DNA of 64,000 nt from Fimbriimonadaceae bacterium. GTDB lineage: Bacteria; Armatimonadota; UBA10988. The stretch lies in assembly GCA_020850355.1 (NCBI GenBank), contig JADZEX010000081.1, positions 131,113 to 195,112 on the forward strand, written 5' to 3'. The notes below the pieces were generated by a model. The model was not told the origin of the DNA, did no database searches, and saw nothing but the letters and a program-made list of their open reading frames with translations. Shown here piece after piece: positions 5,882-40,439 of the stretch (positions within the stretch are counted from its first letter, which is position 1; every line of letters starts with the position of its first letter). The position numbers and the translations under genes were made by a program.

Positions 5882-6753
5882 GTGATGTCTTTCCGCACGA
5901 ATCGCCACCAGCCGATTCCCGTGAAGACTGCGATGCTGACGCCGCAGACCTTCAACATCCAGATCACCTGGTCCCAGGGCACCTGCAACGCCAGGGTCTC
6001 GGGGTCGAAGTTCGTCGGCATCACCTGCGGTGCCTGCGCCAGTTGCGAGGTGAACAGGTAAGGCCGCACCGTCTCGGCCCACTCGAACGGCAGGCCCATC
6101 GCAATCTGGAGCACAATCACCAGCCCCAATGCCACGAAGCCAGGGACCAGCCCGTTGTCGAAGAAGCTCCCCAGCGCCAGGCCGAGCGACGACGTCACGA
6201 AGACCGCCAGGGCCAGAAGCAGGTAGGCCAGCGCCAGGAACCGCAGCGCCTCGGCCTCGGTGAAGATCACCACCCGGCCGGCCTGCAGGGCTTCGAACTC
6301 GAAGAGCTGGCCCCAGCCGAAAGCCAGCCAGCCGAGCAGCAGGCTGACCCCCATCGTGAAGGCACAGAGCAACAGCGTGTAGGCCGCGGCGGCCAGGAAC
6401 TTGGCGCCGAACACGGCGCTGCGGGAGCGCGGTCGCGTCAGCAAGGCCCGCAGCGTGCCGCTGCCGCCCTCGGCGCCGAGGATCTCACCGGCCACAACCG
6501 GCGCCAGGTAGGGCAGCAACAGCGCCAGCGACTTCAGCACGAACTGGCAGATCAGCAGGCCGTTGAGCATGTTGCCGACGACCTGCACGTCGTTCAGCTT
6601 GCGCTCCGCGCGAGCGCCGCTGAAGATGCCAGGCGGATCGTAGTAGAACCCCAGCACGACCATCAGAATCAGCGCCGTGATCGCCAGCAGCACCACGTAG
6701 GGGGTCACCCGCCGGGCCAGTCGGGCCAACTCGTGGCGCAACAGCAAGATCAT
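5875..6753 (-). CDS. ABC-2 family transporter permease
   Basis: 292 aa, six predicted TM helices. ATGA overlap with the upstream ATPase gene. Confidence 0.7.
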   Translation of the reverse strand: MILLLRHELARLARRVTPYVVLLAITALILMVVLGFYYDPPGIFSGARAERKLNDVQVVGNMLNGLLICQFVLKSLALLLPYLAPVVAGEILGAEGGSGTLRALLTRPRSRSAVFGAKFLAAAAYTLLLCAFTMGVSLLLGWLAFGWGQLFEFEALQAGRVVIFTEAEALRFLALAYLLLALAVFVTSSLGLALGSFFDNGLVPGFVALGLVIVLQIAMGLPFEWAETVRPYLFTSQLAQAPQVMPTNFDPETLALQVPWDQVIWMLKVCGVSIAVFTGIGWWRFVRKDITC

Positions 6754-7685
6754 TGGCCGTCTCCGGTGAGCGCCAGGAAGAGCTCCTCCAGCGAGTGCTG
6801 CTGCGGCACCAGGCGATGCACGGCGACGCCGCCGGCGACCAGTCGCCGGTTGACCTCGGCGGCACTGGCCGCGGTCTGCAGCAGCAGCGACTGCTCGCCT
6901 TGTGACCGCACCTGGACCCAGCCGGGCGGCTCCTGCAGCAGCTCCAGGGCGCGTTCGACCGGGTCGCAGCCGACCTCCAGGCTGGTCTCGCCCTGTTCGG
7001 CCAGCAGCGTCGAGACGGCCCCGTGGACCACCAGGCGGCCCTGATTGATGATCGCAACCTGGTCGCAGATCTGCTGCACCTCGGCCAGCAGGTGGCTCGA
7101 GATGAAGATGGTGATGCCCTCCTCGTGGGCCAACTGCCGGACCAGCTCGCGGACCTCCTTCATGCCCTGCGGGTCCAGCCCGTTGGTGGGCTCGTCCAGA
7201 ATCAAGAAGCGGGGCTGCGGCAAGAGTGCCTGCGCCAGGCCCAGCCGCATCCGCATGCCCTGGCTGTAGGTCCGCACCTTGTCGCCCTCGCGGCCCTTCA
7301 GGCGGACCCGCCGCAAAGTCTCCTCGATGTCGTCGCGGCCGACCGGTCCCGACAGGCTGCCCAGCATCATCAAGTTGCGGTAACCGCTGAGGTACGTGTA
7401 GAAGGCTGGCGCCTCGACCTGCGCCCCGACCTGCCGCAGCGCGCCGAGCCGGTCGCGGGCGAGATCGTGCCCCATCAACCGGACGCTGCCTGCGGTGGGG
7501 CGGATCAGGCCCAGGATCATCCGGATGGTGGTGCTCTTGCCTGCGCCGTTAGGCCCCAGAAAGCCAAACACGTCGCCCTCGCGGACGGTCAGGTCAAGCT
7601 GGTCGACCACCCGGCGGCGACCGTAGTTCTTGGTCAGCCCCGTCGTCTCCAGGACGACCGGTCGCGCCACGGCCGGCTCGCTCAC
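6750..7685 (-). CDS. ABC transporter ATP-binding protein
   Basis: Walker A GPNGAGKST. Signature-like LSGGQRMR... and Walker B ILDEPT. GTGA overlap with the upstream hydrolase gene. Confidence 0.85.
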   Translation of the reverse strand: MSEPAVARPVVLETTGLTKNYGRRRVVDQLDLTVREGDVFGFLGPNGAGKSTTIRMILGLIRPTAGSVRLMGHDLARDRLGALRQVGAQVEAPAFYTYLSGYRNLMMLGSLSGPVGRDDIEETLRRVRLKGREGDKVRTYSQGMRMRLGLAQALLPQPRFLILDEPTNGLDPQGMKEVRELVRQLAHEEGITIFISSHLLAEVQQICDQVAIINQGRLVVHGAVSTLLAEQGETSLEVGCDPVERALELLQEPPGWVQVRSQGEQSLLLQTAASAAEVNRRLVAGGVAVHRLVPQQHSLEELFLALTGDGQ

Positions 7686-24316: not shown

Positions 24317-25591
24317 CTAGCGGCCGCGCTCCTGCTCGGCCCGGCGGCTGGCGGCGGCGCGTTGGCGGGCTTTGGCGGCTTCCAGGCGGCGCTGCTGCTC
24401 CTGCATGTCGGCGACCGCCGGGTTCTCGATGCGGCGGTCCCGCGGGGCGCTGCCGCTGGCCGGGGTGGTGGTGTCGTCGGGCGTCACCTCCGGCGCGGGC
24501 GCCGACGGGTCGCTCGGGTTGCGCGGCTTGACCTCGACCCGGACGGCGCTCCCGGCGCTGCCACCGCCCCCGCCCTGGTCGGCGGAGCCGCCGATGGTCG
24601 TGGCGCTGGGCCGGCTGGCCGGGCGGTCCGGCGGATTGAGCTGTTCGTAACTGTCGGGCGTCCGCGGCACGGCGCGCGGCGCGGGCTGGCGCAGGCGGTC
24701 GAGGTAGGTTGGGTCGTAGCCCACCAGCGGCCGTGGCTGCGGGCTGTAGGTGCGCGGCTGCACGGCGCTGCCGGTGCCGCCGGGCACCACCGGGGCGACC
24801 CGCGCCGAGGGGCTGGGCAGGCTGCCGAGGCTGCTGGCGCGGCGGTCGGGCAGGCCGCTGGCCGGTGGCGGGTAGGCCGCCGGGGCGCCGGCGCTGGCGG
24901 GTGCCCCCGCCGGCGGGCGGATGGCCGGCTGCACCACCACCGGCGCCGGCGCGACCGGCGCGGCCGGGGTGCCAGCGGCCGGCGTGGCCGGGGCGGGCGG
25001 CTGCGCCGTGCCGTCCAGGAAAGCCTTCGAGCGAGCGTAGATCTGCTTCGCTTCGTTGTTGTCGGGATCGGCCTTGAGGACCCGCGCGGCAGCTTCCAGG
25101 GCAATCTCGTAGCGTCCCTGCTGGAACGCCTCGCGGGCTGTTTCGAGGTCCTGCTCGGCGTTGGCGGCGGCCACCAGCGGCGTGTTGCGGACGCCGTTGA
25201 TGGCCCCGTTGGCCCAGCGTGCCACCGCCAGGAAGCCGATCAGCACGACCAGCCCGGCGCACACCGCGAGGGTCGTGATGATGCGGTTGGAGCGGACGTC
25301 GGGGTCGACCATCGGCGGCGAGCCCTGGCCGCGGAGCCGGCGCAGCGTGTCGCGCTCGGCTTCGCTCTCCGGGTTCTGCGTCAGCACCAGCCCGATTTCG
25401 CTGGAGGCCTCGCCCAGGCGACCCTCGCGCTCGTAGAGCAGCCCCATCAGCGAGTGCGCGGTGCTGCTGTCGGGGTTCAGCGCCAAGGCCTCGCGGCAGC
25501 CGCGCCGCGCCGCCTCGTCGTCGCCCCGCTCAAACGCCTGGAACGCTTCGTCCAGGAGTCGCTTCACCTGCAAGTCCGGATCACTTCGCAT
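24317..25591 (-). CDS. TPR-repeat membrane protein with Pro-rich C-terminal region
   Basis: TPR motifs flank one TM helix (IITTLAVCAGLVVLIGFLAV). Long low-complexity P/A-rich tail. Start ambiguous (ATG at 25591 or GTG at 25654). Confidence 0.55.
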   Translation of the reverse strand: MRSDPDLQVKRLLDEAFQAFERGDDEAARRGCREALALNPDSSTAHSLMGLLYEREGRLGEASSEIGLVLTQNPESEAERDTLRRLRGQGSPPMVDPDVRSNRIITTLAVCAGLVVLIGFLAVARWANGAINGVRNTPLVAAANAEQDLETAREAFQQGRYEIALEAAARVLKADPDNNEAKQIYARSKAFLDGTAQPPAPATPAAGTPAAPVAPAPVVVQPAIRPPAGAPASAGAPAAYPPPASGLPDRRASSLGSLPSPSARVAPVVPGGTGSAVQPRTYSPQPRPLVGYDPTYLDRLRQPAPRAVPRTPDSYEQLNPPDRPASRPSATTIGGSADQGGGGGSAGSAVRVEVKPRNPSDPSAPAPEVTPDDTTTPASGSAPRDRRIENPAVADMQEQQRRLEAAKARQRAAASRRAEQERGR

Positions 25592-26699: not shown

Positions 26700-27296
26700 T
26701 CAGCCTTCGTGCAGGCGTCGCAGCGCTTCTTTCAGCAAGGCCTCCAGCGCCGCGCCGTCGCCGAGGTGCAATAGCGCCGCGCGCGCCGCGCGCCGGGCCT
26801 CGACGGTGCTGAAGCCCAACCCGGTCAGCGCCTCGAGCAGTTCGGCCGGCGCCGCGCCGCCCGCCGGATCGCCGGCCGCGACGCTCCAGGCCTGCTTCCC
26901 GACGCGCTCGGAGAGTTCCACAATCAGCCGTTGCGCGAGCTTCTTGCCGACCCCCGGCAGGCCGACCAGCCGGGCCTCGTCGCCGCGGGCCAGCGCCTCG
27001 ACGAGTTGGGCCGGCGGGATCGCGCTGACGGCGCCCTGGGCGACCTTCGGGCCGACCCCGCTGACGGTCAGCAACTCCTCGAAGAGCGCCTTCTCGTCGT
27101 CGCTGCCGAACCCGTAGAGCAGCATCGCGTCTTCGCGCACGGCGAGGTAGACCGGCAGGCGCAGCGGGCTGCCGACGGCCGGCAGCCGCGCCACGGTGGC
27201 GCCGGCCAGCAGCACCAGGTAGCCGACGCCGCCGCATTCGATCACCGCGCGGTCTTCGCGCAACAGCGTCAGCGTGCCGTTGAGGTGGGCAATCAT
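26700..27296 (-). CDS. ruvA: Holliday junction DNA helicase RuvA
   Basis: MIAHLNGTL...GVGYLV...HhH motifs [16 protein letters not shown]. Lies immediately upstream of ruvB. Confidence 0.9.
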
Positions 27297-27874
27297 GGGG
27301 TCTCCAGCCGGGCCCGGTGCGCCGCCTGGGCGCGGTCGTCGGCCGCCAGGGCCGCCGCCAGACGGTCGCTGCCGGCACTCGGTTGGGCCGGCCCGGCGGT
27401 GCGGCTGAGCCCGCTGGGGAGGTGGCAGACGCACAGCGCCAGGGCGTCGGCGGCGTGGTCGGGGCGGGGCGGGGCGGGTAGCGCCAGCAGCCGCTGCACC
27501 ATGAACTGGACCTGCGCCTTGTCGGCCTGGCCGTGCCCGACCAGGGTCAGCTTGACATGGGTCGGCGTGTACTCGGCGATGTCCAGCCCGGCCTGCGCCG
27601 CCGCCAGTCGGACGACGCCGATGGCCTGCCCGACAGCCAGCCCGGTGGACCCGTCACGGAGCTGGTAGAGCCGCTCCATGACCACCGTCGCGGGACGCTG
27701 CTCGCGCAGCAGGGCGGACATCTGATCGTGAATGTGGAGCAGGCGATCCCCCAACGGCAGCCGCGCGGCGGTCCGCCAGCAGCCGTAGCGCAACGCCTGG
27801 TAGCGCCCGTGCGCCGCCGCCACCACCGCATAGCCGGTGGCCGCCAGACCGGGATCGATCCCCACCAGGACCAC
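27293..27874 (-). CDS. ruvC: crossover junction endodeoxyribonuclease RuvC
   Basis: GTG start after GGGAGGCGGG. VLVGIDPGLAATGYAVV catalytic-Asp N-terminus. ATGA overlap with ruvA. Confidence 0.85.
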   Translation of the reverse strand: MVLVGIDPGLAATGYAVVAAAHGRYQALRYGCWRTAARLPLGDRLLHIHDQMSALLREQRPATVVMERLYQLRDGSTGLAVGQAIGVVRLAAAQAGLDIAEYTPTHVKLTLVGHGQADKAQVQFMVQRLLALPAPPRPDHAADALALCVCHLPSGLSRTAGPAQPSAGSDRLAAALAADDRAQAAHRARLETP

Positions 27875-27934
27875 GCCCGCCTCCCGCCGCAGTGTAGCAC
27901 GCCGCCCCGCCTGAAACAAGCGTTTGCGCAGGCG

Positions 27935-28498
27935 TCAGGCGGTTCGCCGCTGCGCGGCCCACTCCTCGCGCCGGATCCGCATCAGGTGCAGGTCGTGGCA
28001 CTGCCCGCGGTGGTAGAACGCCTCGCGGCGCGTGCTGGCGACCCGCAGACCGGCCTTCTCGTAGACCCGCTGCGCGGCGAGGTTGGTGGTGAAGACCTCG
28101 AGTTCGACGCGCTGCAGGGCGAGGTCGTCGAACAGGAACTCCAGCAGCAGGCGCACCGCGGCGGTGCCGTGGCCCTGATTCCAGCAATCCCGCTCACCAA
28201 TCGCCAGGCCGATCGTCGCCCGTTGATTGGGGAGATCGAGGTAGTCGGTGCCGGCGGTGCCGATGGGCAGCCATTGCGCGTCGTGGCAGACCTCGACGAT
28301 GAACAGGCGGTTGCTGGGGTCGGCGATCTGGTCGGCGTACCAGTGCTGCTCCTCGGCCGCCGTGAGCGGCGCGAACAGCCCAAGGTTGCCGCGCACCACG
28401 GGGTCGCCGTACCAGCGCAAGAGGTGCGCCAGGTCGCTGGCCAGGGCGCGCCGCAGCCGCCGCGGGGCGGCCGTCAGAACGGTCCGTTCAGCGGCCAT
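27935..28498 (-). CDS. GNAT family N-acetyltransferase
   Basis: 187 aa. Acetyl-CoA binding region QGHGTAAVRLLLEFLFDDLALQRVELEV. Confidence 0.75.
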   Translation of the reverse strand: MAAERTVLTAAPRRLRRALASDLAHLLRWYGDPVVRGNLGLFAPLTAAEEQHWYADQIADPSNRLFIVEVCHDAQWLPIGTAGTDYLDLPNQRATIGLAIGERDCWNQGHGTAAVRLLLEFLFDDLALQRVELEVFTTNLAAQRVYEKAGLRVASTRREAFYHRGQCHDLHLMRIRREEWAAQRRTA

Positions 28499-30252
28499 CA
28501 GCGGCCCGCGAGGTAAGCGTCGGCATGTTGCTTCATCTGGTCCCACGGCCAACCGGCCGGGTCGGGTTTGCCCCGCAGGCCGCCGGCGAAGTCCTTGTGG
28601 TAGACCACGCCCTCCACGAAGGACTCTCGGGGGATGTGACGCAGCGGAATAGCCTGGCGACGACATATATCCGCCACCAGGCGCCCGACCGACCGAATCT
28701 GGCCGGCCGTGAAGTCCCAGCCGTTGGCGACGATCTCGATGCCGATGGTCTCGGAGTTGAAGTCGTAAATCGGCCCGGTGTTGCGCCACTGCCCGGTGCC
28801 GGCGTGGCGCGTGATGGTCTGCTCTTCGGCCAACTGCAAGACGGTGCCGGCGCGCAGCACCAGATAGTGCACGCCGATGGTGCTCGGCTCGGGCAGCACC
28901 TGCGCGCCGGGGGTGATGTCCTGGTAGAGCTTCGAGAGCAGCCCGTCGCTGGAGCTGGTCAGCGCGTTCAGCGAGCCGCCATCGCTCTGGGTGGCGGTGT
29001 GGTGCAGGACCACCCAGCGGGGCCAGCTCGGACGCTGCCAGCGCATCGTGCCGGGCCGCGTGTCGTGGATGGCACGGCCGTCCGGCCGCGGGCGCTGGCG
29101 CCCTGCGAAGGCCATCGCGGCGCTATCGAAAACCACGCCGCTGGGGCCGACATTGCGTCCGCGGCGGGTCACGCGGCAGGTCTTGCCGGCGACGTTGACG
29201 GCGGTGGTTTGGACCAGGTCGCGGTCGTCGATGCCAAAGCGGTCGGTGCGGCCGAGGCTGGTTGCCCAACTGCGGCCGTCGGGCGCGGCGACCGGGGCCG
29301 GCGCCAGCCAGTCGGGCGATGGCCGCAGCGGCACCCGGCTGTCGATGGTCGCCAGCAGCGTGTGCTCGCCGCTGGCCAGGGCGGTCTGCCAGAGCCCCGT
29401 CTGGCCCTCGCGCCGGGCCAGGTAGAGCGCCTGACCGTCGCGCCAGCCGACCAGCGACTCGGTCGGTCCGGCCAACGGCCAGCCCTTGACGACCTCGCCG
29501 TTGGGCCGCCGCTGCTGCGCCCAGGGGCCGTCGGGCTCGGCGGTCTGAATCCAGATGGTTTCGCCCGCCCAACTCGCGCCGAGCACCTGGCAGTCGGGCT
29601 GGGCCGGATAGGCGAAGGTCGGCGCGGCGGTGGGCTGGGCCGCTTGGAAGACCAGCAGTTGCTGCCCGAGGCGCGCGGCGACCAGGCCGTTCGGACCGGG
29701 CCAGACGCCGTCCAGGCCGGCCATCGTCACGACGCGCTGGGGGGCGCCGGCGGGCGGAAGCTGCCACAGACCGCTCGTCTCGCCCTGCGGCACGGTCACC
29801 CAGAGCAGGCCCGCGGCGTCCCAGGCGAAGCTCTGGCGCGTGCGCGGCGTGATGGCGCCGACCCGCAAGGGAGCGCTGAGCAGCCTGGCGTCGGCAGCCT
29901 GCCAGACGCCCACCGCGCCCTGGCCGTCGCTGCCGCCCTGCAAGTAGGCGATCCGCGTGCCATCAGGTGAGGCCTGCCCGCAGCCGAAAGCGCCAGGGCC
30001 GCCCCACAGCCGGGCCGCCGCGGTGCGCACGTCGATGGTGTAGAGCGGCCCGAGCGGGGCGGCGTTGAGGCGGTCATGGTGCGACTCGAGGTGCAGCCGC
30101 GGGCCGTCGCCCGACCAGACCGGCTGGCCCCCCGGCCCGAGCCAGCGCAGACTGGGCGCACCAGGGGTGTAGAGGTGGACGCCGGCGGTGCGCACGAGAG
30201 GTTCGCCCGCCAGCAGGCCGGCGCAGGTCAGCAGAACGACGAGGTTGCCCAA
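28498..30252 (-). CDS. secreted beta-propeller (TolB/WD40-like) protein fused to C-terminal N-acetylmuramoyl-L-alanine amidase (Amidase_2/PGRP) domain
   Basis: TTG start after GGAGGG. Signal peptide LGNLVVLLTCAGLLAG. Repeated W/G-rich blades. C-terminal LHHTAT...GVHYLV...IGIEIVANG amidase_2 motifs. Overlaps GNAT start by 1 nt (TGATG). Confidence 0.65.
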   Translation of the reverse strand: MGNLVVLLTCAGLLAGEPLVRTAGVHLYTPGAPSLRWLGPGGQPVWSGDGPRLHLESHHDRLNAAPLGPLYTIDVRTAAARLWGGPGAFGCGQASPDGTRIAYLQGGSDGQGAVGVWQAADARLLSAPLRVGAITPRTRQSFAWDAAGLLWVTVPQGETSGLWQLPPAGAPQRVVTMAGLDGVWPGPNGLVAARLGQQLLVFQAAQPTAAPTFAYPAQPDCQVLGASWAGETIWIQTAEPDGPWAQQRRPNGEVVKGWPLAGPTESLVGWRDGQALYLARREGQTGLWQTALASGEHTLLATIDSRVPLRPSPDWLAPAPVAAPDGRSWATSLGRTDRFGIDDRDLVQTTAVNVAGKTCRVTRRGRNVGPSGVVFDSAAMAFAGRQRPRPDGRAIHDTRPGTMRWQRPSWPRWVVLHHTATQSDGGSLNALTSSSDGLLSKLYQDITPGAQVLPEPSTIGVHYLVLRAGTVLQLAEEQTITRHAGTGQWRNTGPIYDFNSETIGIEIVANGWDFTAGQIRSVGRLVADICRRQAIPLRHIPRESFVEGVVYHKDFAGGLRGKPDPAGWPWDQMKQHADAYLAGR

Positions 30253-30477
30253 GGAGCCCTCCGCAGGCAGGATGCAGCAGCGGTCGGGTGGCGTCAAGGC
30301 GGGCGACGGGGGGCGCAGGCCCAACAGCAGACCCGACGAGGGCCCCAGTGAGCGCCATCCGCGCCACGGACGCAGCAGCTCCGAGCGTCCAGCTTGACGG
30401 CGCTCGCCACGACCTGCTACTCTCCAACTGCGTCGCCCAACCAGCCGAAGGGTTTGCCGAGCGGAGCCAGGCCAACA

Positions 30478-30909
30478 ATGCCAGCCAAGGAGTACCATCA
30501 GCTTCCAAGATGCCCATGCAAGAAGCTGCGGTACCGCTATGATCCTTGTGAGGGTCGAACGAAGCACAAGTGGCGTGAAGGTGCGGCGGGCTTTGCGCCT
30601 GTGGGCAAGTTCATTGTTGGCAAGTGTCCTTGCGGCATGTCCAATGCCGAGGCCGAGGCCATCCTCAACAGCGGGATGGGCGAGTATGACCCGGGTGACG
30701 AGCACCCAAAGAAGATCTACGCGGTGCATAATGGCGTTGTCTACATAGCTATGCGGAACAACGACGGCAACGCGTATCATGGCTATCCAGCAACTCGGCG
30801 TGATGTTGTCGGCAGCGCATACCGGTACGTGCTAGAAATGGCTGACCGCGACCAGTGTATGCAAGCCGCCAAAGCGTGGCTGAAGGAGCACCGCGGTGGC
30901 AACGGATAG
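30478..30909 (+). CDS. small Cys-rich hypothetical protein (2x CPC motifs; possible zinc ribbon / HNH-like core)
   Basis: 143 aa. Motifs PRCPCKK...C...GKCPCG then YAVHNGVVYIAMRNNDGNAYHGY. Low-GC codon usage. 14-nt overlap with the downstream gene. Confidence 0.55.
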   Translation: MPAKEYHQLPRCPCKKLRYRYDPCEGRTKHKWREGAAGFAPVGKFIVGKCPCGMSNAEAEAILNSGMGEYDPGDEHPKKIYAVHNGVVYIAMRNNDGNAYHGYPATRRDVVGSAYRYVLEMADRDQCMQAAKAWLKEHRGGNG

Positions 30910-32329
30910 TGGATTCTCCATAGACATTGACTTCAGTCAGGATGTTGATGCCGGATCCCGCCAGCGACCTTTGGACGGGGGCCTCGTCCTCAAGATTGGA
31001 CGGTGGTTGCCGTGGAATGAGCAGGATGAGCGGGGCCAGCCCGTTCCAGACCAAGACTGCTGGCGAAGTCTGCTTGAGTGGATGAGTGACGCCTGGTTGT
31101 ACCTTCGGCACGACACCACAGAACCGTTGCGGCTACTAGGCAAGCCACTGTCCAATAACCCCGCGCTCTGGTGGGATGAGGCTCTCGACCGCTGGGATAG
31201 TCCCGACTACGACTCGGACCGGGCCTCGAAAGAGGAAAGCGATCTAGTTGATTGGCTGAACAATCACGACATCTCGTGCGGTTTGCCCGAGAAGTGCGGT
31301 GCACGTGTAGTGTTTCTTCGGGTGGGTGCCCAGTGCATGGTAAGTTGCCCGGATGGGTCTGTGACGTTGGGGCTGGAAGAGGCCTTGACGGAGCTAACTC
31401 GGTGTGGGGATACCTTGGCCGAGAGGTTGCGGGGCTCGACGCTGCCGGCCGACCAGGCCCTTGTGGCACGATGGAAGAGCCGGGACAACACGTCAGTGGA
31501 GGGCCGCTTGGCGGCCTTCGGCGCCAACGTTCAGGTTCTTCGTGCGCTGAGGTCCAGCGAAGCCTTGGCGACATGGTCCCTCGAGCTGGATGCCGTCGAT
31601 CCCAATGCCAATCCTCTGCTGTTGGCGGCTCGGGCATGTCAAGATGAGCTGCCTACCGACATCCTGAGTAAGCTGCTGGCCCAGATCAGAGAGATCCGTG
31701 AGAGGCCCACCCCTGTGGTGGATGAGTTGGCTCGCAAGGTAACGGCAAGTCTGCGTCGATCCAGCCGTACCAAACCGTTCAGGCAGGGGTACATGGCGGC
31801 CGCGACCTTGCGTTCTCGGCTCGGTGCTGCAACTGGTGCAATCGATCCGGTCGAGCTGTTGGACCGTTGGAACGTAGCGGTGCAGCACCTCCAGCTTGGA
31901 ACGGAGGTCATTGATGCGGTGGCCTGCTGGGGAGGTGGCTACGGGCCGGTGATCCTAGTGAATGACGACGGTCGGCACGCTCAGGGTACTAACGGTCTGC
32001 GTGCAACACTCGCGCACGAGATCGGCCACCTCATGGTGGACCGCTGGGATTGCGTGCCTGTTTGCGATGTGAGCGGGCTCCGCTCTCGTCTGCCCCACGA
32101 GCAACGCGCCAATGCCTTCGCTGCTGAGCTGCTCGTGCCGCAGGACGAGATCAAGCGACGACTCATACCGGGGTGCCAGGTGACTGCGGTCGTCACCGAC
32201 CTGGCTGCTGAGTACGGCGCGAGTCGGCAGCTCGTGGCTTGGCACGCCACCAACTCGGCGACCGAACTGGATTCCCGCGCCAAGGGCGCGCTCCGCGATC
32301 TCTGTGACGAGGACGATACCTGGAGTTGA
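30896..32329 (+). CDS. ImmA/IrrE-family (COG2856, DUF955) zinc metallopeptidase-domain protein with about 270-aa N-terminal domain of unknown function
   Basis: GTG start 7 nt after AAGGAG. C-terminal motifs ATLAHEIGHLMVD (HExxH) and ANAFAAELLVP, diagnostic of ImmA/IrrE peptidases. Confidence 0.75.
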   Translation: MATDSGFSIDIDFSQDVDAGSRQRPLDGGLVLKIGRWLPWNEQDERGQPVPDQDCWRSLLEWMSDAWLYLRHDTTEPLRLLGKPLSNNPALWWDEALDRWDSPDYDSDRASKEESDLVDWLNNHDISCGLPEKCGARVVFLRVGAQCMVSCPDGSVTLGLEEALTELTRCGDTLAERLRGSTLPADQALVARWKSRDNTSVEGRLAAFGANVQVLRALRSSEALATWSLELDAVDPNANPLLLAARACQDELPTDILSKLLAQIREIRERPTPVVDELARKVTASLRRSSRTKPFRQGYMAAATLRSRLGAATGAIDPVELLDRWNVAVQHLQLGTEVIDAVACWGGGYGPVILVNDDGRHAQGTNGLRATLAHEIGHLMVDRWDCVPVCDVSGLRSRLPHEQRANAFAAELLVPQDEIKRRLIPGCQVTAVVTDLAAEYGASRQLVAWHATNSATELDSRAKGALRDLCDEDDTWS

Positions 32330-32339
32330 TGGCGACTGG

Positions 32340-32624
32340 CGCGGCCAGCCCGGGGATCCGGTCAGTTGGATCAGCGTGCAGTCGGCCCCGCCGCTGCTGC
32401 CACCCTACAGCTCGGGCAGCTTCCAGAGCCGGCTGCTGCCATTGCTGCAGGCCGGCCACGGCGGCACCCGCCTGGCCGCCGCCGAACTGCGCACCTTGGC
32501 CACCTGGCTGGACCTGCTGGTGCCCTACTGCGGCGACTACACCGAGGCGCACGCCTGGAGCCCGGAAGAGGTCGCCAAGTACCAGCACTTCAGCGACAAG
32601 CGCCGCCGCCTGGCAACGCCGTAG
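32340..32624 (+). pseudogene. 5'-truncated gene remnant (C-terminal fragment of unknown protein)
   Basis: High-GC ORF resuming exactly where the low-GC islet ends. Coding-like periodicity (…LVPYCGDYTEAHAWSPEEVAKYQHFSDKRRRL) but no start context and no N-terminal part anywhere upstream. Confidence 0.35.
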
Positions 32625-32663
32625 CCGCGCCGGTGAGTCAGGCTGGTTCGTCGGCGCCGCCCG

Positions 32664-34133
32664 CTAGCGCACGCGGTCGCGGAGCCAACCGGCGACTTCG
32701 TCCTTGGCCAGCCGGACCTGCTGCATCGTGTCGCGGTCGCGGATGGTGACCTTGCCGTCGTCGTCGATGGTCTGGTGGTCGACGGTGATGCAGTAGAGCG
32801 TGCCGATCTCGTCCTGCCGACGGTACAGCTTGCCGATGGCGCCGGTGTCGTCGTACTGCACGCTGAAGTCCTCACGAAGCTCGGCGGCCAGGGCGCGGGC
32901 GGTGGCGACGAGGTCTTCGCGGTTGCCGGCCAATGGCAGCACGGCGGCCTTGATGGGGGCCAGGGTGGGGTGCAGGCGAAGCAGCGTACGGGTCGCCTTG
33001 CCGCCCTTCTGGTCGGTGTACTCTTCCTCGGTGTAAGCCTCGGTCAGGAACGCCAGCACGTTGCGGTCGACCCCGGCCGACGGCTCGACGACGTGCGGCA
33101 CGACGCGGCGCTCGGTCTTGGTGTCGAAGTAGTCGAGCGTCTTGCCGCTGAACTCGGCGTGCTGCGACAGATCGAAGTCGGTCCGGTTGGCAATGCCCTC
33201 GAGCTCGGCGAAGCCGATCGGGAAGCGGTAGAGGATGTCCACGGTGCGCGTCGAGTAGTGCGAGCGCTTGTGGTCGGGGTGCTCGTAGAGGTCGAGATTC
33301 TCGCGGGCGATGCCGAGCCGGGTGTACCAGGCGATCCGCGCGTCGATCCACTCCTGGTGCTTCTCGGCCGACTGCTCCGGCCAGCAGAAGTACTCGATCT
33401 CCATCTGCTCGAACTCGCGGGTCCGGAAAGTGAAGTTGCCGGTCACGATCTCGTTCCGGAAGGCCTTGCCGACCTGGGCGATGCCGAACGGCAGCTTGCG
33501 GCGCATCGTCGTCAGGACGTTGTCGTAGTTCACGAAGATGCCCTGGGCGGTTTCGGGGCGGAGGTAGGCGATGCTGCCTTCGACCGGCCCGACCTGCGTC
33601 TGGAACATCATGTTGAAGGCCCGCGGCTCGGTGAACGACCCGGCGGCGCCGCACTTCGGGCAGACCTGCGGGGTGCCCTCCGCGGCGTCGATCACCATCG
33701 GCGCGGCGCTGACTTCCCAGCGCTTGCCAATCTGGTGCAGCTCGCGGCCCTTGCTCAGCGCCTCGTCCTCTTCGCCGGCCTCCACCGCGTACTGCTTGCT
33801 CTCGTCGCGGTGCGTCGCGGTGAGGCACCAGAGGTGATCGGCGCGGAATCGCGCTTTGCATTCCTTACAATCGACCAGCGGGTCGTTGAAGACCGCGACG
33901 TGGCCGGACGCCTCCCACACCCTGGGGTGCATCAGGATGCTGGCGTCGAGCGGTTCCATGTCGTCGCGCTGCTGCACGACGGCCTTCCACCACTGGGCCT
34001 TGATGTTGTTCTTGAGCAACGTCCCGAGGGGGCCGTAATCGTAGGTGCTCTGGAAGCCGCCGTAGATCTCGCTGGACGGGAAGATGAACCCGCGACGCTT
34101 GCAGAGCGAGACCAGCTTGTCCATGGTGACCAT
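32664..34133 (-). CDS. glyQS: glycine--tRNA ligase (single-chain alpha2 type)
   Basis: Motifs MDKLVSLCKRRGFIFPSSEIYGG and class II aaRS motifs. ATG preceded by AGGAGG 8 nt upstream. Confidence 0.9.
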   Translation of the reverse strand: MVTMDKLVSLCKRRGFIFPSSEIYGGFQSTYDYGPLGTLLKNNIKAQWWKAVVQQRDDMEPLDASILMHPRVWEASGHVAVFNDPLVDCKECKARFRADHLWCLTATHRDESKQYAVEAGEEDEALSKGRELHQIGKRWEVSAAPMVIDAAEGTPQVCPKCGAAGSFTEPRAFNMMFQTQVGPVEGSIAYLRPETAQGIFVNYDNVLTTMRRKLPFGIAQVGKAFRNEIVTGNFTFRTREFEQMEIEYFCWPEQSAEKHQEWIDARIAWYTRLGIARENLDLYEHPDHKRSHYSTRTVDILYRFPIGFAELEGIANRTDFDLSQHAEFSGKTLDYFDTKTERRVVPHVVEPSAGVDRNVLAFLTEAYTEEEYTDQKGGKATRTLLRLHPTLAPIKAAVLPLAGNREDLVATARALAAELREDFSVQYDDTGAIGKLYRRQDEIGTLYCITVDHQTIDDDGKVTIRDRDTMQQVRLAKDEVAGWLRDRVR

Positions 34134-34212
34134 GCCGAGAGCCTCCTGAGGCGTTGGCATTGTAGGGGCCAACGCGGGGATGGTCAACGGCGGGGGAGGA
34201 CCCCAACCGGCC

Positions 34213-34239
34213 GACGGACCGCGGGGTCTGCGGTCCGTC
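34213..34239 (-). promoter_or_regulatory. perfect 10-bp-stem hairpin between sugar-transferase gene end and glyS start
   Basis: gacggaccgc-ggggtct-gcggtccgtc. No U-tract on either strand. Could be a U-less terminator or leader structure. Confidence 0.35.
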
Positions 34240-34266
34240 GCAGGTCAGCAGGGTGGCAGTGGCGGC

Positions 34267-35001
34267 CTACTGCGCGCCGCGCCCGGTGAACATCACGGCG
34301 ACGGTCGACCAGCAGATGGCCAGGTCGAGAACCAGGGAGCGGCGCTGAATGTACTCCAGGTCGTGCTGCAGCTTGCGCTTGACGTCCTCCAGGCAGGTGT
34401 CGTAGCCCTGCCGGATCTGCGACAGGCCGGTGATGCCCGGGGTCACCAGGTGCCGGTCGCTGTAGCCTTCAATCTGCTGCACGAACTGCTTCACGAACTC
34501 GGGCCGCTCGGGCCGCGGGCCGACCAGGCTCATCTCGCCTAGCAGCACGTTCCAGAGCTGGGGCAGCTCGTCCAGGCGGGTCTTGCGCAGCAGGCGACCG
34601 GTGCGGGTGACGCGGGGGTCGTTTTCCTGGGCCCAGACCGGACCGCTGGCGGCCTCGGCGTCGGAGCGCATGGTGCGGAACTTGACCATCTCGAAGACCG
34701 GCCCCCCGACGTCGCGGCGGCGGAGGTCAAGGCGGTAGACGTTGCCGAACAGCCGCAGGCTGCGGCCGCCAGCGCGGCGGCGGTTGCGGCCGACCCGCCG
34801 CTGGCGATAGAACACCGGGCCGCGGCTGTCGAACTTGATGGCCACCGCCACCAGCGCAAACAGCGGCAGGAGGCCCAGCAGCGCCACGGCGGCGATCCAG
34901 CACTCCAGCCCGCGGCGCAGGAACTCATAGCGCCGGAACGACGGCGTGGCCACCTTCGTGGCGGGTGCGACTGGATTGTGGATGGGGCGATGCTGCTGCA
35001 T
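34267..35001 (-). CDS. bacterial sugar transferase (polyprenyl-phosphate hexose-1-phosphate transferase, WbaP/EpsL-like C-terminal domain)
   Basis: One TM then FRTMRSDAE...[26 protein letters not shown], diagnostic of the Bac_transf family. Confidence 0.85.
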
Positions 35002-35274
35002 GGCGCTCTTCTCTGCTGGGCTATTCCTGGCCAGGCACTGCTGCAAGCCGCGTGCCAAATAGCCCGTTTTGTCTATCGCCTCTGCCCTAAAGGATGCGGC
35101 CTCCCGGATCCCTGGCAAGGGTTCCTACCATCCGCCGGCCCGATTCGGCGTAACGGCCTAGTTACTCTTAGCTATGCCATCAGCCGACTGCCAGGTCGGT
35201 TGATGCTCTTGGGCAGCCTGCTGCCGCGAACCCTAGCGAAGTTGAACAGCCCTCGGGGCGGCCGTCTGCGGAGG

Positions 35275-35325
35275 CCCAAAAAGAGCGACCGGACCGGCTC
35301 GCAGAGCCGCTCCGGTCGCGCTGGG
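35275..35325 (-). terminator. rho-independent terminator downstream of the CBM/GH gene
   Basis: Minus strand: 16-bp near-perfect stem (gcgcgaccggagcggctc / gagccggtccggtcgctc) followed by CTTTTTGGG. Confidence 0.6.
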
Positions 35326-35344
35326 TCGAGACCCTGAGAAGGTT

Positions 35345-38092
35345 CTAGCGGAGTGTTTCGAGGGCCCGCAGGAGGGTCACCCGGACGCCTTCGAGGGCTT
35401 GCCAGGAGCGCTCATAGTCGGTCACCCCGCGGACCGCTGGCCGTGCCAGTTGCGCGAGGTGCTCTTGCGCCGCCGCCGGTGTCAGGCCCTTGGCGATCAG
35501 CCGCTGACGCAGCTCCAGGAGCAGTTCGGCCTCCTCCAGGCCGTCCCGCTCGGACTCGTAACGCAGCGAGCTGTTGGCGATGGTGGTGGTGGAGGGCCAG
35601 ACGATGTACTGGTCGCCCGGACTCTCCAGACTGGTCAGCGGGATGTCCCACCAGTTCAGCGCCCAGTGCAGGTAGCCGGTCGTCTCGCCGAGGGCGTTCA
35701 ACCAGTGCAGGACCCGCGGCTTGAGGGCGCTGCTGTCGATCATCCGGTTCGGGAAGGCGCCCTGCGGGACCCAGGCGACATAGAACCAGACCTCCCGGCC
35801 GGCCGCCTGTTGGGCCCGGAAGGCGTCGCGCCACTGCATGAAGTAGTTGAGCTGCGGCACCTGGATCTCCAGGTCCTCGCCCAGGTCGGGGACATGAATC
35901 GCGTCGATCCGCCGCAGCTTCGGGGCCGCCGCCTTGACCTGCCGCGAGAGCTGGCGCCAGGAGTCGATGTTGCGCGGAATCGGCTCATCGGCGACATGCA
36001 CCGCGAACTGGTCGGTCCACCCACGCTGGTCGACGTGCGCCGCCACCGGGGCCAGCACGTCGAGCGTCCGCAGCGCGACCGGCTCGCCGTTGGCCAGCTT
36101 GTGCGCCGTGAAGCCATGGGCGACGAACGTCGGGCACTCCCAGTCGCCGGTCTCCCGGCCGCCGATGTGGCTGAGGCAGAACAGCCGATCGACCCCGGCG
36201 CTGCGCATCGTGTCGACAAAGCGGTCGAAGGCGGTGAAGTCGCATTCCAGGCCACCGTCGTCGCGGACCCAGACGCGCACCAGGCTCAGCGGCACGATCA
36301 CCGTGTTCTGATGGTAGCTGGTCATCAACTGCCCGAGCCGCCGCAGCACCTGCCAGCCATCGGCCGACTGCGGCTCGACGCCCCAACGCTTGCACACGGC
36401 GTCCCACTGAAACCAGTAGACAAATCCCAGCTTGCGCACCGCCGGCAGCTCGGCGGTCGAGACGGTCAGCTCCAGCGGCCACTCCTGGCGACCCTGGACG
36501 CTCTCGACCCGCAGGCTGCCGCGGTAGATGCCGGGCGAAGTGTCGCGCGGCACGGTCACCCGCAGGTAGATCGGCTGGACCTGCCCGGCCGGCAGCTCCC
36601 GTTCGCGGTCGTCGCTCAGCTCGTCGGGGTAGTCGGCCGGGCCCTTCCAGACCAGCTCCTCGGCCGGGGTGGCGCGGCTGTTCTTCTCGATGGCAACGTA
36701 GTTGACGAAATGGGTGCCAATCCAGTGGGCGGCCAGCCGACCGTCGCCGCCGACCTGGCGCAGGTCGCTGGGCACCGCGCGGAGCCGCTCCACCGGGGCG
36801 GTGGTGCGCAGCAGGATCTGCCGGCCCTCGGTCTCGCCGCGCAGCGCGACGAGCTGCAGCGCGGTCAGCCCGGTCGGCAGGCTGGCGGCGTCCCGCGGCA
36901 CCTGCGCGTGCGGGTCGGCCAGCGCCGCCTGCCACGGCCCCGGCCCGGCGGCGGTCAGCGCCGCGGCCACCGGCACCGCCAGGTCATCGCTCCGTTGGCC
37001 GTTGCGGCCGACCGCGCGGACGGTCAAGGTGGTCGCCGCCGTGGTCACCGTGGCGGTCGCCCAGGGCGCCGTGCAGGGCAGCGGTCGCGGCGCCCGCCAG
37101 GCGGCGCTGAGGTCGACGGTCTGCAGCACCTGATCCCCAGCCGCGATCTCGAGGCTGGCGACCTCCTCGTCCAGCAGGTGCGGCGACCAGCCGACCGTCA
37201 CCGCGGCGCCGGCTCGCTCGGCCCAGGCCAGACCGGGCCGCGGCCGGCGACGGTCGGCCGCCGTGGGCGTCGCCGCCGCCGACAGCGGTGACTGCCGGGC
37301 GTCGCCGTCGACCACCGCGCAGCGGATCTGATAGGCCGTGCCAACCTGCAGGCCGGGCAGCGTCAGGCCGCCGGCCAAGACGTCCGCCACGGCGTTCGGG
37401 GCGCGGCCGGCGGTCGTCTCGAAGGGCGTCGGCGAGACCCAGGCCAGCAGCCGGATGCCGCCCCCAGCGGCGGTCTGGGCGGCGTCCCAGGTGACCCGCA
37501 GCTCGCCCGCGGCGCGGTCGGGGGAGGTGACCGAAACAGTCGGGGCCGGCGGTGGGCCGGCAGCGTTCGGGAGCCGTTCCATGGCAACCTCGTCGTACCA
37601 GACCGTGCCCTGGTTGGGCTGTGCCGTCAACAGGTCGAAGTGTACCGAGCGCGCCTCGAAGGGGGCCTCGAAGACCTGCTCGACGAACTGCCAGTCCTGC
37701 GTGCCGGTGACCTCGCCAACGCCATCGCCGCGCATCCACGGCCCGTCGTGGCGCATCCACTCCACCAGGATGCCGGCGTTGCCGGTCAGCTTCTCACAAC
37801 GGACCCAGCCGCTGACGCGGTACCGGCCGGGGCTGCACGCCACGAGCTGCATCGCGATGCCGCGCTTGCCGCCGCCGACGATCTTCAGGGCGTGGCTGCC
37901 CTCACGCCCTTCGCCTGGCGCCACGACCACCGAGCTGGTTCCGCTGCCAGGCGGCTGGGCGTACCAGGCGTGATCCAAGATCCAGCCGCTGCTGCCGGCC
38001 TCGAAGTCGCCATTGCGCAGCAGCGAGGCGCCGTCAGCGGGCGCTGTCAGGCTCAGGGCCAGCACCGTCAGCAGCAGTCCGCAGCGAACCAT
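35345..38092 (-). CDS. secreted carbohydrate-active enzyme: N-terminal CBM4/9-like sugar-binding module + Fn3-like repeats + C-terminal DUF4091 / GH-like domain
   Basis: ATG after GGGGAGAAG. Signal peptide MVRCGLLLTVLALSLTAPA. LRNGDFEAGSSGWIL CBM4_9 motif. C-terminal DUF4091-like region (WFYVAWVPQGAFPNRMID). Confidence 0.6.
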   Translation of the reverse strand: MVRCGLLLTVLALSLTAPADGASLLRNGDFEAGSSGWILDHAWYAQPPGSGTSSVVVAPGEGREGSHALKIVGGGKRGIAMQLVACSPGRYRVSGWVRCEKLTGNAGILVEWMRHDGPWMRGDGVGEVTGTQDWQFVEQVFEAPFEARSVHFDLLTAQPNQGTVWYDEVAMERLPNAAGPPPAPTVSVTSPDRAAGELRVTWDAAQTAAGGGIRLLAWVSPTPFETTAGRAPNAVADVLAGGLTLPGLQVGTAYQIRCAVVDGDARQSPLSAAATPTAADRRRPRPGLAWAERAGAAVTVGWSPHLLDEEVASLEIAAGDQVLQTVDLSAAWRAPRPLPCTAPWATATVTTAATTLTVRAVGRNGQRSDDLAVPVAAALTAAGPGPWQAALADPHAQVPRDAASLPTGLTALQLVALRGETEGRQILLRTTAPVERLRAVPSDLRQVGGDGRLAAHWIGTHFVNYVAIEKNSRATPAEELVWKGPADYPDELSDDRERELPAGQVQPIYLRVTVPRDTSPGIYRGSLRVESVQGRQEWPLELTVSTAELPAVRKLGFVYWFQWDAVCKRWGVEPQSADGWQVLRRLGQLMTSYHQNTVIVPLSLVRVWVRDDGGLECDFTAFDRFVDTMRSAGVDRLFCLSHIGGRETGDWECPTFVAHGFTAHKLANGEPVALRTLDVLAPVAAHVDQRGWTDQFAVHVADEPIPRNIDSWRQLSRQVKAAAPKLRRIDAIHVPDLGEDLEIQVPQLNYFMQWRDAFRAQQAAGREVWFYVAWVPQGAFPNRMIDSSALKPRVLHWLNALGETTGYLHWALNWWDIPLTSLESPGDQYIVWPSTTTIANSSLRYESERDGLEEAELLLELRQRLIAKGLTPAAAQEHLAQLARPAVRGVTDYERSWQALEGVRVTLLRALETLR

Positions 38093-40439
38093 CGCGCTTC
38101 TCCCCGGCCGTCCACGCGGCCAGCAGCAGAGCCACTCCGAGCAGTCCCGCGAACAGGCCGACCCGCACACTGGTCGGGGCAAAGACCCACTGCACCCGCT
38201 GGTCGGCGAACCCTCCGCCCGCGGCCAGCGCCATGTTGGGCACGAACCGGCCCTGGTCGTAGGGCGGCTGGAACGGCGCCCGAATCCAGGCCGCCGGCTG
38301 CAGCGCCGGGCTGGCCAGCGGGCCGAGGTAGACTCGCCAGCCGGGCGCTGCGCTGTCCAGCAGCAGCGAGGAGACTGGCGGCAACCGCCAGGCCGCGCGG
38401 TTCACCCCGTCGTAGAGCGTCCGCTGCACCGCCGGCCGCGGGGGTTGGCCGTCGATCACCGCAAAGCAGCGCGCCGTGGCCGCCGGTCGCGCCGACCAGA
38501 CCTCGGGCGTCCCGCTCGGCAGCGCCCCAAGCGGCCGCTCCCGGCTCAACACCTGGCTGACCGCCCCGGCCACTCGCCGCGGGTCGACGTCGCCCAGCAG
38601 CAGCATGTTGCCGTTGATGGCAGGCGCCGGCTGGCGCCCGCCGGCGGCCCACGACATCGCCTGCTTGGCCGCCGCCGGCAACAGCGAGTCGTACCCGCCC
38701 ACGTCGCGCAGCCCGGCCGCGGTGGCCAGGTTGGGCGGCAGCAACAGCCCCTCGGGCGGGTGGTAGAAGCCCCACCGCGCTGGCGGGTCGAGCGCCAGCA
38801 GGCGCGTGCCATCGCGCTCCAGGCGCTGCGCCAGCGGTGCCAGTCGGGCCGGTCGGGGATCCAGCAGAGCGCGCTCGCAGGTCGGGTTGAAACCGTACCC
38901 GAACCAGAGCAGCTCGACCGCCGCCAGCGCCACCACCAGCGCCGGCCGTCGGCGCAGCGCCAGCGCCGCCAGCAACAGGCCCAGCGCCGCGGTCAGGGCG
39001 GTCAACTGCCCGTACCAGGTGACCTCGAGCAGGGCGCCCAGCCGCGCCGCCAGGGCGGCCCGGGTCAGCAGCACCAGGCCCACCAGCACCACCCCGGCCA
39101 CCGCCCCGAGCTGCCAGCCGCGCCGCGCCGGCAGAGCGGCCAGGCGGTCGACCCCGCAACCGGCGGCGATCGCCAGGCCGAGGGTCCAGACCAGCGCCAG
39201 CCGGCACGGCCCGGCGCCCGCGCTGTAGCCAGGCAGCGCCCAGTAGAGCAGCCGGTTCGGCGGGCCGCCGAGCGCCAGCAGCAGGGCCAGCAGGGCCAGC
39301 CCCAGGTAGCCTCGCGCCGGCTGCCCACGCGCGCCGCGACCGAGCAGCAGGGCGGCCGCCAGCAGCGGCAGGAGGCCGCCGAAGAGGTTGAACTCGGTGT
39401 AGTCGCCCGGCGAAATCGCCCCGCGGCGGTCGCTGCCCCAGTACGCGCCGTCGGCCGCCTGCCGCAACAGCGCTGCGGGCGGCGCTGCGGGGTCCACCGT
39501 GCCGCGCGCCGGGTCGCCGTAGAAGCGCGGCAGCGCCAGCGTGACCAGGCGATCCAGCGGGATCGCCCGCCCCCCGAAGGCCTCGTAGCCGGCCGCCGAG
39601 CGGCCCGGCGGGCGGTGACTGCGCGGTGCCAGCTCCAGCAGCGGCAGCACCATCGGCGCGGCGACCAGGCCAGCGGTCACGGCGCAGGCCAGCCAGACGA
39701 GCACCCGCCGGCGGCCGAACCGCCAGGCGGCAACCGCCAGGGTGGTCACCGCCACGTAATGAAACACCTGCGGGTGCCCGGCCAGGCCAGCCAGCCCGAC
39801 GCAGCCGCCGGCCCAGACCGCGTGCCGCCAGCGGCCGGTGGCGCTGGCCCGCTCGACCTGCCAGAGGGCCCACGGCAGCCAGGCGGCGCTGCTGACCAGC
39901 GTTGGCAGCAGCAGCCAGGTGACGTTGAACCCGCCCAGCCCGTAGACCAGCCCCGCCAGCAGCGCGCCGGGGCGGCCCGCGCCAAGTTGTCGCGCCAGCA
40001 GCCAGGCGCCGGTCGCCGCCAGCCAGAGATGCAGCACGGCGGTCAGCCGGAAGCCGTCCGCGACGGGCAGCAGTCCGAAGCAGAGCCAGTTGGGCGGGTA
40101 CCAGAGCGCTGACTGCCCGTTGCCGCAGAAGGCGTAGCCGTTCAGTTGGTAGGGATTCCAGAGCGGCAGGCAGTTGTTGCGCAGCCCATCGGCCAGCAGC
40201 GTCCGCCACGGCCAGTACTGCCCGACCGCGTCGTACCAGAGCGCGTTCCAGGCCGTCCGCGGCGCCTGCCCAGCGGCCCACGGCGCGAACCAGCGCAGGT
40301 AGTCGGGCAGCGGCGCCCGACCCGCCACGACGGGCGCCAGCAGGAGGCCCACCGCCAGCAGCAGCAGGGCCGGACCCGCCGCTCCGGCGACCCGCCGTCG
40401 ACTGCTCCGCGGCGCGTCGGCCTGTGCGGCAGCGCTCAC
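38034..40439 (-). CDS. YfhO/GT-C-like polytopic membrane protein (putative glycosyltransferase)
   Basis: 801 aa, more than 12 TM helices, YfhO-like organisation. 3' end overlaps the downstream gene start by about 59 nt. Confidence 0.55.
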   Translation of the reverse strand: MSAAAQADAPRSSRRRVAGAAGPALLLLAVGLLLAPVVAGRAPLPDYLRWFAPWAAGQAPRTAWNALWYDAVGQYWPWRTLLADGLRNNCLPLWNPYQLNGYAFCGNGQSALWYPPNWLCFGLLPVADGFRLTAVLHLWLAATGAWLLARQLGAGRPGALLAGLVYGLGGFNVTWLLLPTLVSSAAWLPWALWQVERASATGRWRHAVWAGGCVGLAGLAGHPQVFHYVAVTTLAVAAWRFGRRRVLVWLACAVTAGLVAAPMVLPLLELAPRSHRPPGRSAAGYEAFGGRAIPLDRLVTLALPRFYGDPARGTVDPAAPPAALLRQAADGAYWGSDRRGAISPGDYTEFNLFGGLLPLLAAALLLGRGARGQPARGYLGLALLALLLALGGPPNRLLYWALPGYSAGAGPCRLALVWTLGLAIAAGCGVDRLAALPARRGWQLGAVAGVVLVGLVLLTRAALAARLGALLEVTWYGQLTALTAALGLLLAALALRRRPALVVALAAVELLWFGYGFNPTCERALLDPRPARLAPLAQRLERDGTRLLALDPPARWGFYHPPEGLLLPPNLATAAGLRDVGGYDSLLPAAAKQAMSWAAGGRQPAPAINGNMLLLGDVDPRRVAGAVSQVLSRERPLGALPSGTPEVWSARPAATARCFAVIDGQPPRPAVQRTLYDGVNRAAWRLPPVSSLLLDSAAPGWRVYLGPLASPALQPAAWIRAPFQPPYDQGRFVPNMALAAGGGFADQRVQWVFAPTSVRVGLFAGLLGVALLLAAWTAGEKRDGSLRTAADGAGPEPDSAR

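Follow-up and report, generated by a model that had tools for sequence, protein, structure and literature searches.

Two Overlapping Genes in a Low-G+C Islet

The locus described here lies in a 64-kb stretch of a Fimbriimonadaceae genome (contig JADZEX010000081.1; the whole stretch of 64,000 nt is referred to as the window), where two overlapping plus-strand genes occupy an islet of low G+C (guanine plus cytosine) content between a cell-wall amidase gene and the remains of a resident gene. The first open reading frame (ORF), ORF1 (30478..30909), encodes a predicted toxin of 143 amino acids, and the second, ORF2 (30896..32329), encodes a 477-residue protein with an ImmA/IrrE-type protease domain; the two frames share 14 nt. 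Directly downstream on the same strand lies ORF3, recognized from homology and codon composition as the 3' remnant of the resident gene (32325..32624; called as an ORF at 32304-32624). The three proteins were deposited as MCC7495278.1 to MCC7495280.1, with locus tags IT204_23215 to IT204_23225.

The first-pass annotation of this DNA had described a drop in G+C content coinciding with the two overlapping genes, and the drop proved to be real. The segment 30440-32335 has a G+C content of 61.1%, compared with 71.6% for the whole window (0.611 vs. 0.716), and is the lowest of all 1896-nt windows (mean 0.715, standard deviation 0.028, minimum at 30451, z = -3.7). The difference is carried by the third codon positions, at which the G+C content (GC3) is 0.667 in ORF1 and 0.697 in ORF2, compared with an average of 0.873 (standard deviation 0.053) over 31 long ORFs of the window and 0.90-0.93 in the islet's neighbors (the GNAT gene, ruvC, glyS, a sugar transferase gene, and a gene for a 945-residue protein). 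With a gap of more than 0.2, the two genes stand 3-4 standard deviations below the resident genes.

The compositional break is large and sharp at both ends of the islet. At the left border, which includes the 5' region of ORF1 (30400..30477, plus strand) and was followed in 100-nt G+C steps, in the GC3 profile, and in the sequence itself, the G+C content falls from 0.69-0.75 to 0.57 between approximately 30400 and 30450, and GC3 in the amidase frame is host-like only below approximately 30375. A GGAG sequence is located at 30463-30466, 11 nt before the ORF1 ATG; no sigma-70 consensus promoter or terminator was found at the islet, and no Rfam match in 29500-33000. The right junction (32325..32335) coincides with the ORF2 stop codon (32327-32329), where codon-position G+C changes from the ORF2 frame (GC3 0.80) in 32250-32324 to the ORF3 frame (GC3 0.84-0.96) in 32325-32399. 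Strong homology to the resident-gene family begins at 32337-32340, within a few bases of this stop codon, and ORF2 can be aligned with its homologues up to its C-terminus.

Probable Replacement of the 5' Part of a Resident Gene by the Islet

The ORF beyond the right junction had been suspected of lacking its 5' part, and comparison with its homologues, which are 47-62% identical and several of which reach further N-terminally, bore this out. A metagenome scan with ORF3 gave 80 loci, 48 of which had enough upstream DNA. At all 48, the ORF3-matching segment was C-terminal, within the last ~100-130 residues, and started at residue 686-1068 of ORFs of 793-1187 amino acids (typically ~860); in 46 of the 48, its end lay 9-54 residues short of the stop codon. 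The remnant, which retains a host-like GC3 of 0.927, thus corresponds to approximately the last 95 residues of a family of ~860-residue proteins. In full-length proteins of this family, Pfam recognizes an HZS_alpha domain, and a CxxCH region resembling cytochrome c is also present. When eight full-length homologues were compared with the 64-kb window by tblastn, matches were restricted to 32337-32618, apart from two low-quality extensions (to 32253 and 32286), and no N-terminal remnant of the gene was found anywhere in the window. The ORF3-frame similarity upstream of 32325 was rejected as chance, because ORF2 aligns to its end with its homologues and the codon-position G+C there follows the ORF2 frame.

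Judged by these alignments, approximately 740 codons (~2.2 kb) of the resident gene are missing. The first-pass annotation had attributed the truncation to an insertion or to an associated deletion. Because the missing 5' part does not lie across the islet, a plain insertion is excluded, and what is required is either a replacement or an insertion accompanied by the loss of at least ~2.2 kb.

Two further observations concern this gene family. By chance, the ORF3 frame has no stop within ORF2 as far upstream as 32184. The 82-residue MCC7495280.1, deposited as a "hypothetical protein," represents what is left at the 3' end of a gene for a ~860-residue product, and a pseudogene-fragment label would fit it better. 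At two of the homologous loci (L007, 3800-6339; L008, 1-616), the HZS_alpha/cytochrome-c-like gene is split by frameshifts into small called genes (e.g., P0037 and P0038), which may reflect either sequencing error or real decay; these frameshifts account for some "short" ORF3 homologues on long contigs.

ORF1 Encodes a Predicted BECR-Like Toxin

ORF1 had no match in Pfam, NCBIfam, or PHROGs, and a profile search of the Protein Data Bank (PDB) was also empty. A word-indexed protein search retrieved only ORF1 itself, and an exhaustive HMMER search gave 192 representative clusters (50% identity), mostly of 125-145 amino acids. Because homology within the family begins at residue 17 of the 143-residue form, ATG 30478 is the likely start of ORF1. 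The deposited form (MCC7495278.1, 102 amino acids, GTG start) is too short and cuts off the region with Y21, K29, and H30. These three residues are nearly invariant in the family, as are C50, L63, P77, G86, Y89, H101, P104, W134, and a strand with the motif SYHG[YF]P. Catalysis in BECR-fold RNase toxins relies on conserved His, Arg, Lys, or Tyr residues, and the nearly invariant K29, H30, Y89, and H101 of ORF1 are candidates for such a role.

A relationship to known effectors was suggested by PADLOC profiles. Residues 50-111 of ORF1 match positions 197-254 of the 263 positions in a profile of NsnC, the effector of the Menshen anti-phage system (E = 1.8e-6), and 84 members of the ORF1 family gave 18 member-to-profile matches to three NsnC profiles (best E = 3.5e-8). 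In NsnC, the C-terminal domains are mostly BECR RNases, and the predicted order of one helix and four strands in ORF1 may correspond to the published description of the BECR core (PMC12065111). In the ORF1 model (predicted local distance difference test score, pLDDT, 88.7), this core comprises helix 56-65 and strands 67-69, 79-84, 87-93, and 99-104. A Foldseek search with the model returned nothing significant, with RelE toxins among the top rows, and its structural neighbors include 5T87_E, the toxin CdiA-CT of Cupriavidus taiwanensis. The fold evidence from the model is modest, and the assignment of ORF1 as a toxin, as judged from profiles and model together, is supported but not strong.

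ORF2 Appears to Join an Immunity-Like Domain to an ImmA/IrrE Protease

The ORF2 model (pLDDT 85; predicted template modeling score 0.86) has three parts. Residues ~1-180 (30896..31435) would form an alpha+beta domain, which we provisionally regard as Imm23-like; residues ~181-300 (31436..31795) are a predicted helical linker that falls in poorly conserved alignment columns; and residues ~301-477 (31796..32329) form the ImmA/IrrE (Peptidase_M78) zinc metallopeptidase domain, identified by Pfam and by motif. PF06114 (Peptidase_M78, COG2856) is matched at residues 326-448 with a score of 32.8 bits, the curated cut-off being 22, and all 24 family members examined match it. HEIGH, an instance of the zinc-binding and catalytic HExxH motif, occupies residues 374-378 (encoded at 32015-32029), with E402 as the Glu ligand that follows downstream. 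H374, E375, H378, and E402 are invariant in the 24 sequences, and D382, R404, and the segment NAFAAELL are invariant or nearly so; the protease domain is predicted to be active.

The protease part has matches among regulators and antitoxins. Residues ~255-461 match 13 PADLOC profiles of RmrA, the antitoxin of the phage-defense system RosmerTA (RmrT + RmrA), with a best E of 3.8e-12, and also the PADLOC capP profile; the NCBIfam "spr1629 family repressor/antitoxin" matches the same part far below threshold, and the fold matches of ORF2 include CapP and IrrE. The RmrA matches are confined to the protease part. Residues 1-300 contain no helix-turn-helix (HTH) family among the Pfam, NCBIfam, and PADLOC matches. 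Only ~25 full-length-type relatives of ORF2 were detectable among 5.8 billion proteins, the best being 34% identical.

A further fold match of ORF2 is 5FFP_B, an Imm23-family CdiI of Burkholderia dolosa, and the N-terminal part probably accounts for it in the model. Imm23 has been defined as an immunity domain of alpha+beta fold that carries a WxW motif (PMC3482391). Where the first long helix of the ORF2 family starts, a W-x-W with LLE-L after it is conserved, and the second tryptophan, W67, is invariant; the copy in the window has C-W at the WxW position. The Imm23 assignment applies at the fold level only, and we predict that residues ~1-180 are the toxin-binding (immunity or antitoxin) part of ORF2.

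The roles of the two proteins could be reversed, with the metallopeptidase ORF2 as the harmful protein and the small ORF1 as its inhibitor, as the invariance of the ORF2 catalytic residues might suggest. A zinc-metalloproteinase/HTH-Xre pair of Brucella abortus, investigated as a putative type II toxin-antitoxin (TA) system (PMC10538038), may offer a precedent, its proteinase reportedly being the proposed toxin. We nevertheless consider such a reversal very unlikely: ORF1 resembles toxin domains rather than antitoxins, the fold match of ORF2 is an immunity protein, and in validated RosmerTA systems, where the ImmA protease is recognized as an antitoxin hub, it is the ImmA-domain protein that serves as the antitoxin (PMC10440598), for which reason we infer the antitoxin role for ORF2.

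The Gene Pair Recurs in Unrelated Bacteria

We addressed the distribution of the two genes by analyzing the surroundings of ORF2-family genes in other genomes. An ORF1-family ORF was located directly upstream of the ORF2-family gene in nine of ten other loci (L001, L002/L003, L004, L005/L006, L169, L170, L171, and L172; the exception, L173, is considered below), usually with an overlap of 4-37 nt. At L172, gene calling had missed the ORF1-like ORF, whose open frame stops 3 nt before the ORF2-like frame does. On an eleventh, partial contig, an ORF2-like gene comes after the homologue nearest to ORF1 (48% identical), and the contig ends after 141 codons of this ORF2-like gene. No ORF1-family match occurred in 1.9 Mb of unrelated control loci. 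The pair occurs in Armatimonadota, in Alpha- and Gammaproteobacteria, and in Actinomycetota, and its named hosts include Agrobacterium tumefaciens (plasmids), Candidatus Thiodictyon (plasmid), Rhodoplanes, Candidatus Poriferisodalis, and Modestobacter; three of the contexts are plasmids. No named ORF2 match came from another member of the Fimbriimonadaceae, and clustering of 15 billion proteins at 90% identity leaves all three proteins of the window locus as singletons. Taken together, these results show that the two genes are a self-contained module, conserved as a pair in unrelated bacteria.

The contexts of the pair include those of mobile and defense genes. At all eight loci tested, the G+C content of the pair was 2.3-8.7 points below that of its flanks. 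In one locus (L001, 1-13401), the pair (5585-6004 and 6001-7401) is embedded in a BREX locus, with a PglX-like MmeI-type methyltransferase gene on one side of it and the PglY/BrxC and PglZ genes on the other. At four independent loci, classical type II TA pairs adjoin the module or lie within ~2 kb of it (PIN/MazE, VapC/Phd, MazEF, and PIN/PSK_trans_fac; L005 2883-3540, L169 4115-4788, L170 9259-9806, and L171 6285-6919), which suggests that the module and TA pairs share hot spots. A phage origin was considered and rejected: among 50,697 phage records, only a protease-domain match in one mycobacterial prophage was found.

Two alternative roles for the pair were also weighed. In the first, the pair would be a protease/regulator switch without a toxin, comparable with CapH/CapP of CBASS, ImmR/ImmA of ICEBs1, and DdrO/IrrE of Deinococcus, in which the proteases cleave separate HTH repressors of cargo genes; ORF1 would then be a regulator or signaling protein cleaved by ORF2. 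CapP and IrrE, whose substrates are small partner repressors, are indeed the nearest to the ORF2 protease, and a small first gene that overlaps the second is common in protease/regulator pairs. However, ORF1 gave no family match of the HTH or any other DNA-binding kind, the matches of its core are to NsnC effector regions and toxin folds instead, and the genes next to the pair differ in every locus, which leaves no conserved downstream cargo for ORF1 to regulate. In addition, our module has its candidate substrate domain on the same polypeptide as the protease. We therefore regard a switch of this type as unlikely.

In the second alternative, the pair would be an orphan polymorphic-toxin/immunity cassette, a CdiA-CT/CdiI-like relic retained as protection when bacteria compete, and not as a TA or defense switch inside the cell, as could be expected from the contact-dependent inhibition (CDI) proteins among the best structural neighbors of both ORF1 (5T87_E) and ORF2 (5FFP_B). 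The likeness to the CDI pairs is at the fold level only (14-16% identity), with no sequence-profile match and no CdiA delivery protein, and 5T87 and 5FFP come from different CDI systems rather than from a cognate pair. Moreover, ORF1-family proteins are mostly ~125-145 amino acids long; some of the 150 matches listed have 160-224 residues with the match near the C-terminus, but no long delivery or repeat region occurs among the family matches listed. Secretion-system genes are adjacent in none of the loci, and simple immunity would not call for fusion to an active protease. An origin as such a cassette is accordingly quite unlikely.

Probable Acquisition of the Module and Evidence For and Against It

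The first-pass annotation had proposed that a horizontally acquired cassette truncated the resident gene, and this proposal gained support from the composition of the islet, from the recurrence of the mobile module, and from the ~740 codons lost. Given a mobile, recurrent pair together with the compositional break, horizontal acquisition is the only economical reading. The opposite view, in which the genes are ancestral with an atypical composition or the arrangement is an assembly artefact, could appeal to the metagenome-assembled origin of the genome and to the lack of an empty site, repeats, and mobility genes in our searches. We consider it highly improbable given the GC3 gap described above, the patchy distribution of the pair across phyla and plasmids with an ORF2 identity of at most 34%, the host-like composition of both flanks within a 217,517-bp contig, and the cut in the resident gene exactly at the compositional border. 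All the rival explanations weighed in this study are less well supported than our best reading, namely that the pair is a horizontally acquired RosmerTA-like TA or abortive-infection module. It is thus probable, in our judgment, that the low-G+C stretch is a horizontally acquired two-gene module of the toxin/antitoxin type that replaced the 5' part (at least ~2.2 kb) of a resident gene, with ORF1 as a BECR-like RNase and ORF2 as its antitoxin-protease.

Several observations weigh against this reading. Upstream of the ORF2-family gene of Modestobacter (L173, 3453-4001), there is a 550-bp uncalled gap without a detectable ORF1-like ORF, where the partner may be different or degraded. The comparison with syntenic relatives that the first-pass annotation had envisaged yielded no pre-insertion state: in the five closest genomes, anchored at glyS (L009-L013; glycyl-tRNA synthetase, GlyRS, 78-83% identical), no other gene from 26700-38182 of the window occurs within 10 kb of glyS, and none of 82 metagenome loci with an ORF3-family gene has GlyRS, amidase, or other window neighbors nearby. 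The direct repeats sought at the borders were likewise absent beyond chance level, the best pair matching at 13 of 15 nt (30359 and 32275), so that no target-site duplication could be recognized. No tRNA gene was found in the window and no integrase or transposase, the islet holding just the two genes; it therefore shows none of the classical genomic-island features (integrase or transposase, tRNA or att site, flanking repeats). As for the function, ORF2 lacks the Xre-type HTH of RmrA, and its regulatory logic may differ; the complex of ORF1 and ORF2 is a candidate interaction put forward by analogy.

Gene order is poorly conserved in this lineage. On the left side of the islet, the first-pass annotation was right that an amidase gene flanks it, and its orientation had to be corrected: the gene (28498..30324) lies on the minus strand, divergent from the islet, so that it is transcribed away from it. 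Its product carries a C-terminal Amidase_2 domain (Pfam PF01510, E = 1.6e-21). Judged from start codons and the GC3 profile, translation probably begins at TTG 30252, which has GGAGG 5 nt upstream (-10 to -6), or at TTG 30324. Elsewhere in the window, the stretch 24400-25200 is very G+C-rich (0.79-0.83), and 38800-40000 shows a strong positive AT skew of up to +0.49.

Relation to Known Systems and a Proposed Mechanism

We compared the module with known defense and TA systems. It is most like RosmerTA, which is also a two-gene operon with a small variable toxin and a larger ImmA/IrrE (M78) protein and is also a mobile module found beside defense and TA genes; the predicted toxin gene is first in our module, as the toxin gene is in 58% of RosmerTA pairs (PMC10440598). 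A predicted toxin gene and an ImmA-domain gene, in keeping with the two components of RosmerTA, are both found here, whereas the HTH that marks the RosmerTA antitoxin is not: RmrA usually, although not universally, carries an N-terminal Xre-type HTH (PMC10440598), and ORF2 has instead an alpha+beta domain of ~180 residues and a linker of ~120 residues. ORF1 matches no Pfam, PHROGs, or NCBIfam family. With Menshen, the module shares the resemblance of the ORF1 core to the C-terminal effector region of NsnC, but ORF1 stands alone without the inactive-PIN N-terminal domain, and neither NsnA (ParB-DUF262) nor NsnB (ABC ATPase) adjoins it in the window, where its neighbors are the amidase gene and glyS. 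The module is therefore not Menshen, nor is it a CBASS regulator pair or a classical integrative island. No account of a pair of this kind was found in the literature searched on ImmA proteases, BECR RNases, Imm23, RosmerTA, and Menshen.

On these comparisons, we proposed a mechanism for the module. ORF1 would act in the cytoplasm as a small toxin, in all likelihood an RNase of the BECR fold, and its core is related to the effector region at the C-terminus of Menshen NsnC. Translation of ORF2 is coupled to that of ORF1, and the protein's Imm23-like N-terminal domain would bind and neutralize the toxin, with the C-terminal ImmA/IrrE zinc protease acting as the switch. In ImmA, IrrE, and CapP, stress signals activate the cleavage of partner proteins. 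By analogy with these proteases and with RmrA, a signal of stress or phage infection could activate the ORF2 protease, which would then destroy the neutralizing part in cis or in trans, and the freed ORF1 would stop growth, resulting in abortive infection or post-segregational addiction. The analysis itself establishes the foreign composition, the truncation next to the islet, the conservation and mobile contexts of the pair, the intact active site of the protease, and the fold similarities; the toxicity of ORF1, its binding by ORF2, and what triggers the protease and what it cleaves are all inferred from such likenesses.

A more specific interpretation, which we put forward tentatively as possible but doubtful, is that the pair represents an undescribed defense/addiction family, in which an immunity domain would be covalently tethered to an ImmA/IrrE protease; upon a stress or phage signal, the protein would destroy the neutralizing part of itself or of a neighboring molecule and so release a BECR-type RNase. 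ORF2 would then be antitoxin and sensor in a single polypeptide, distinct from the HTH-protease antitoxins of RosmerTA.

Implications for Genome Evolution and Toxin-Antitoxin Diversity

At the level of the genome, truncation of a gene by a foreign islet is an ordinary finding, and here a well supported one; the locus provides a clean example of a small gene replacement by a mobile module, with sharp compositional borders and a host gene that is interrupted where the incoming gene has its stop codon. At the level of the gene families, the pair extends the network of TA and defense systems built on ImmA proteases, with an ORF1 family of ~190 clusters at 50% identity. No family in Pfam, PHROGs, or NCBIfam is specific to it, and the matches in PADLOC extend over only parts of both proteins. 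In ORF2, an immunity-like domain appears to take the place of the antitoxin's usual DNA-binding domain, and the pair suggests a link among the effector domains of Menshen, contact-dependent inhibition, and TA systems. If it is true that the protease controls the release of the toxin, the pair would offer a compact model of how an ImmA/IrrE protein couples a stress signal to a toxic output.

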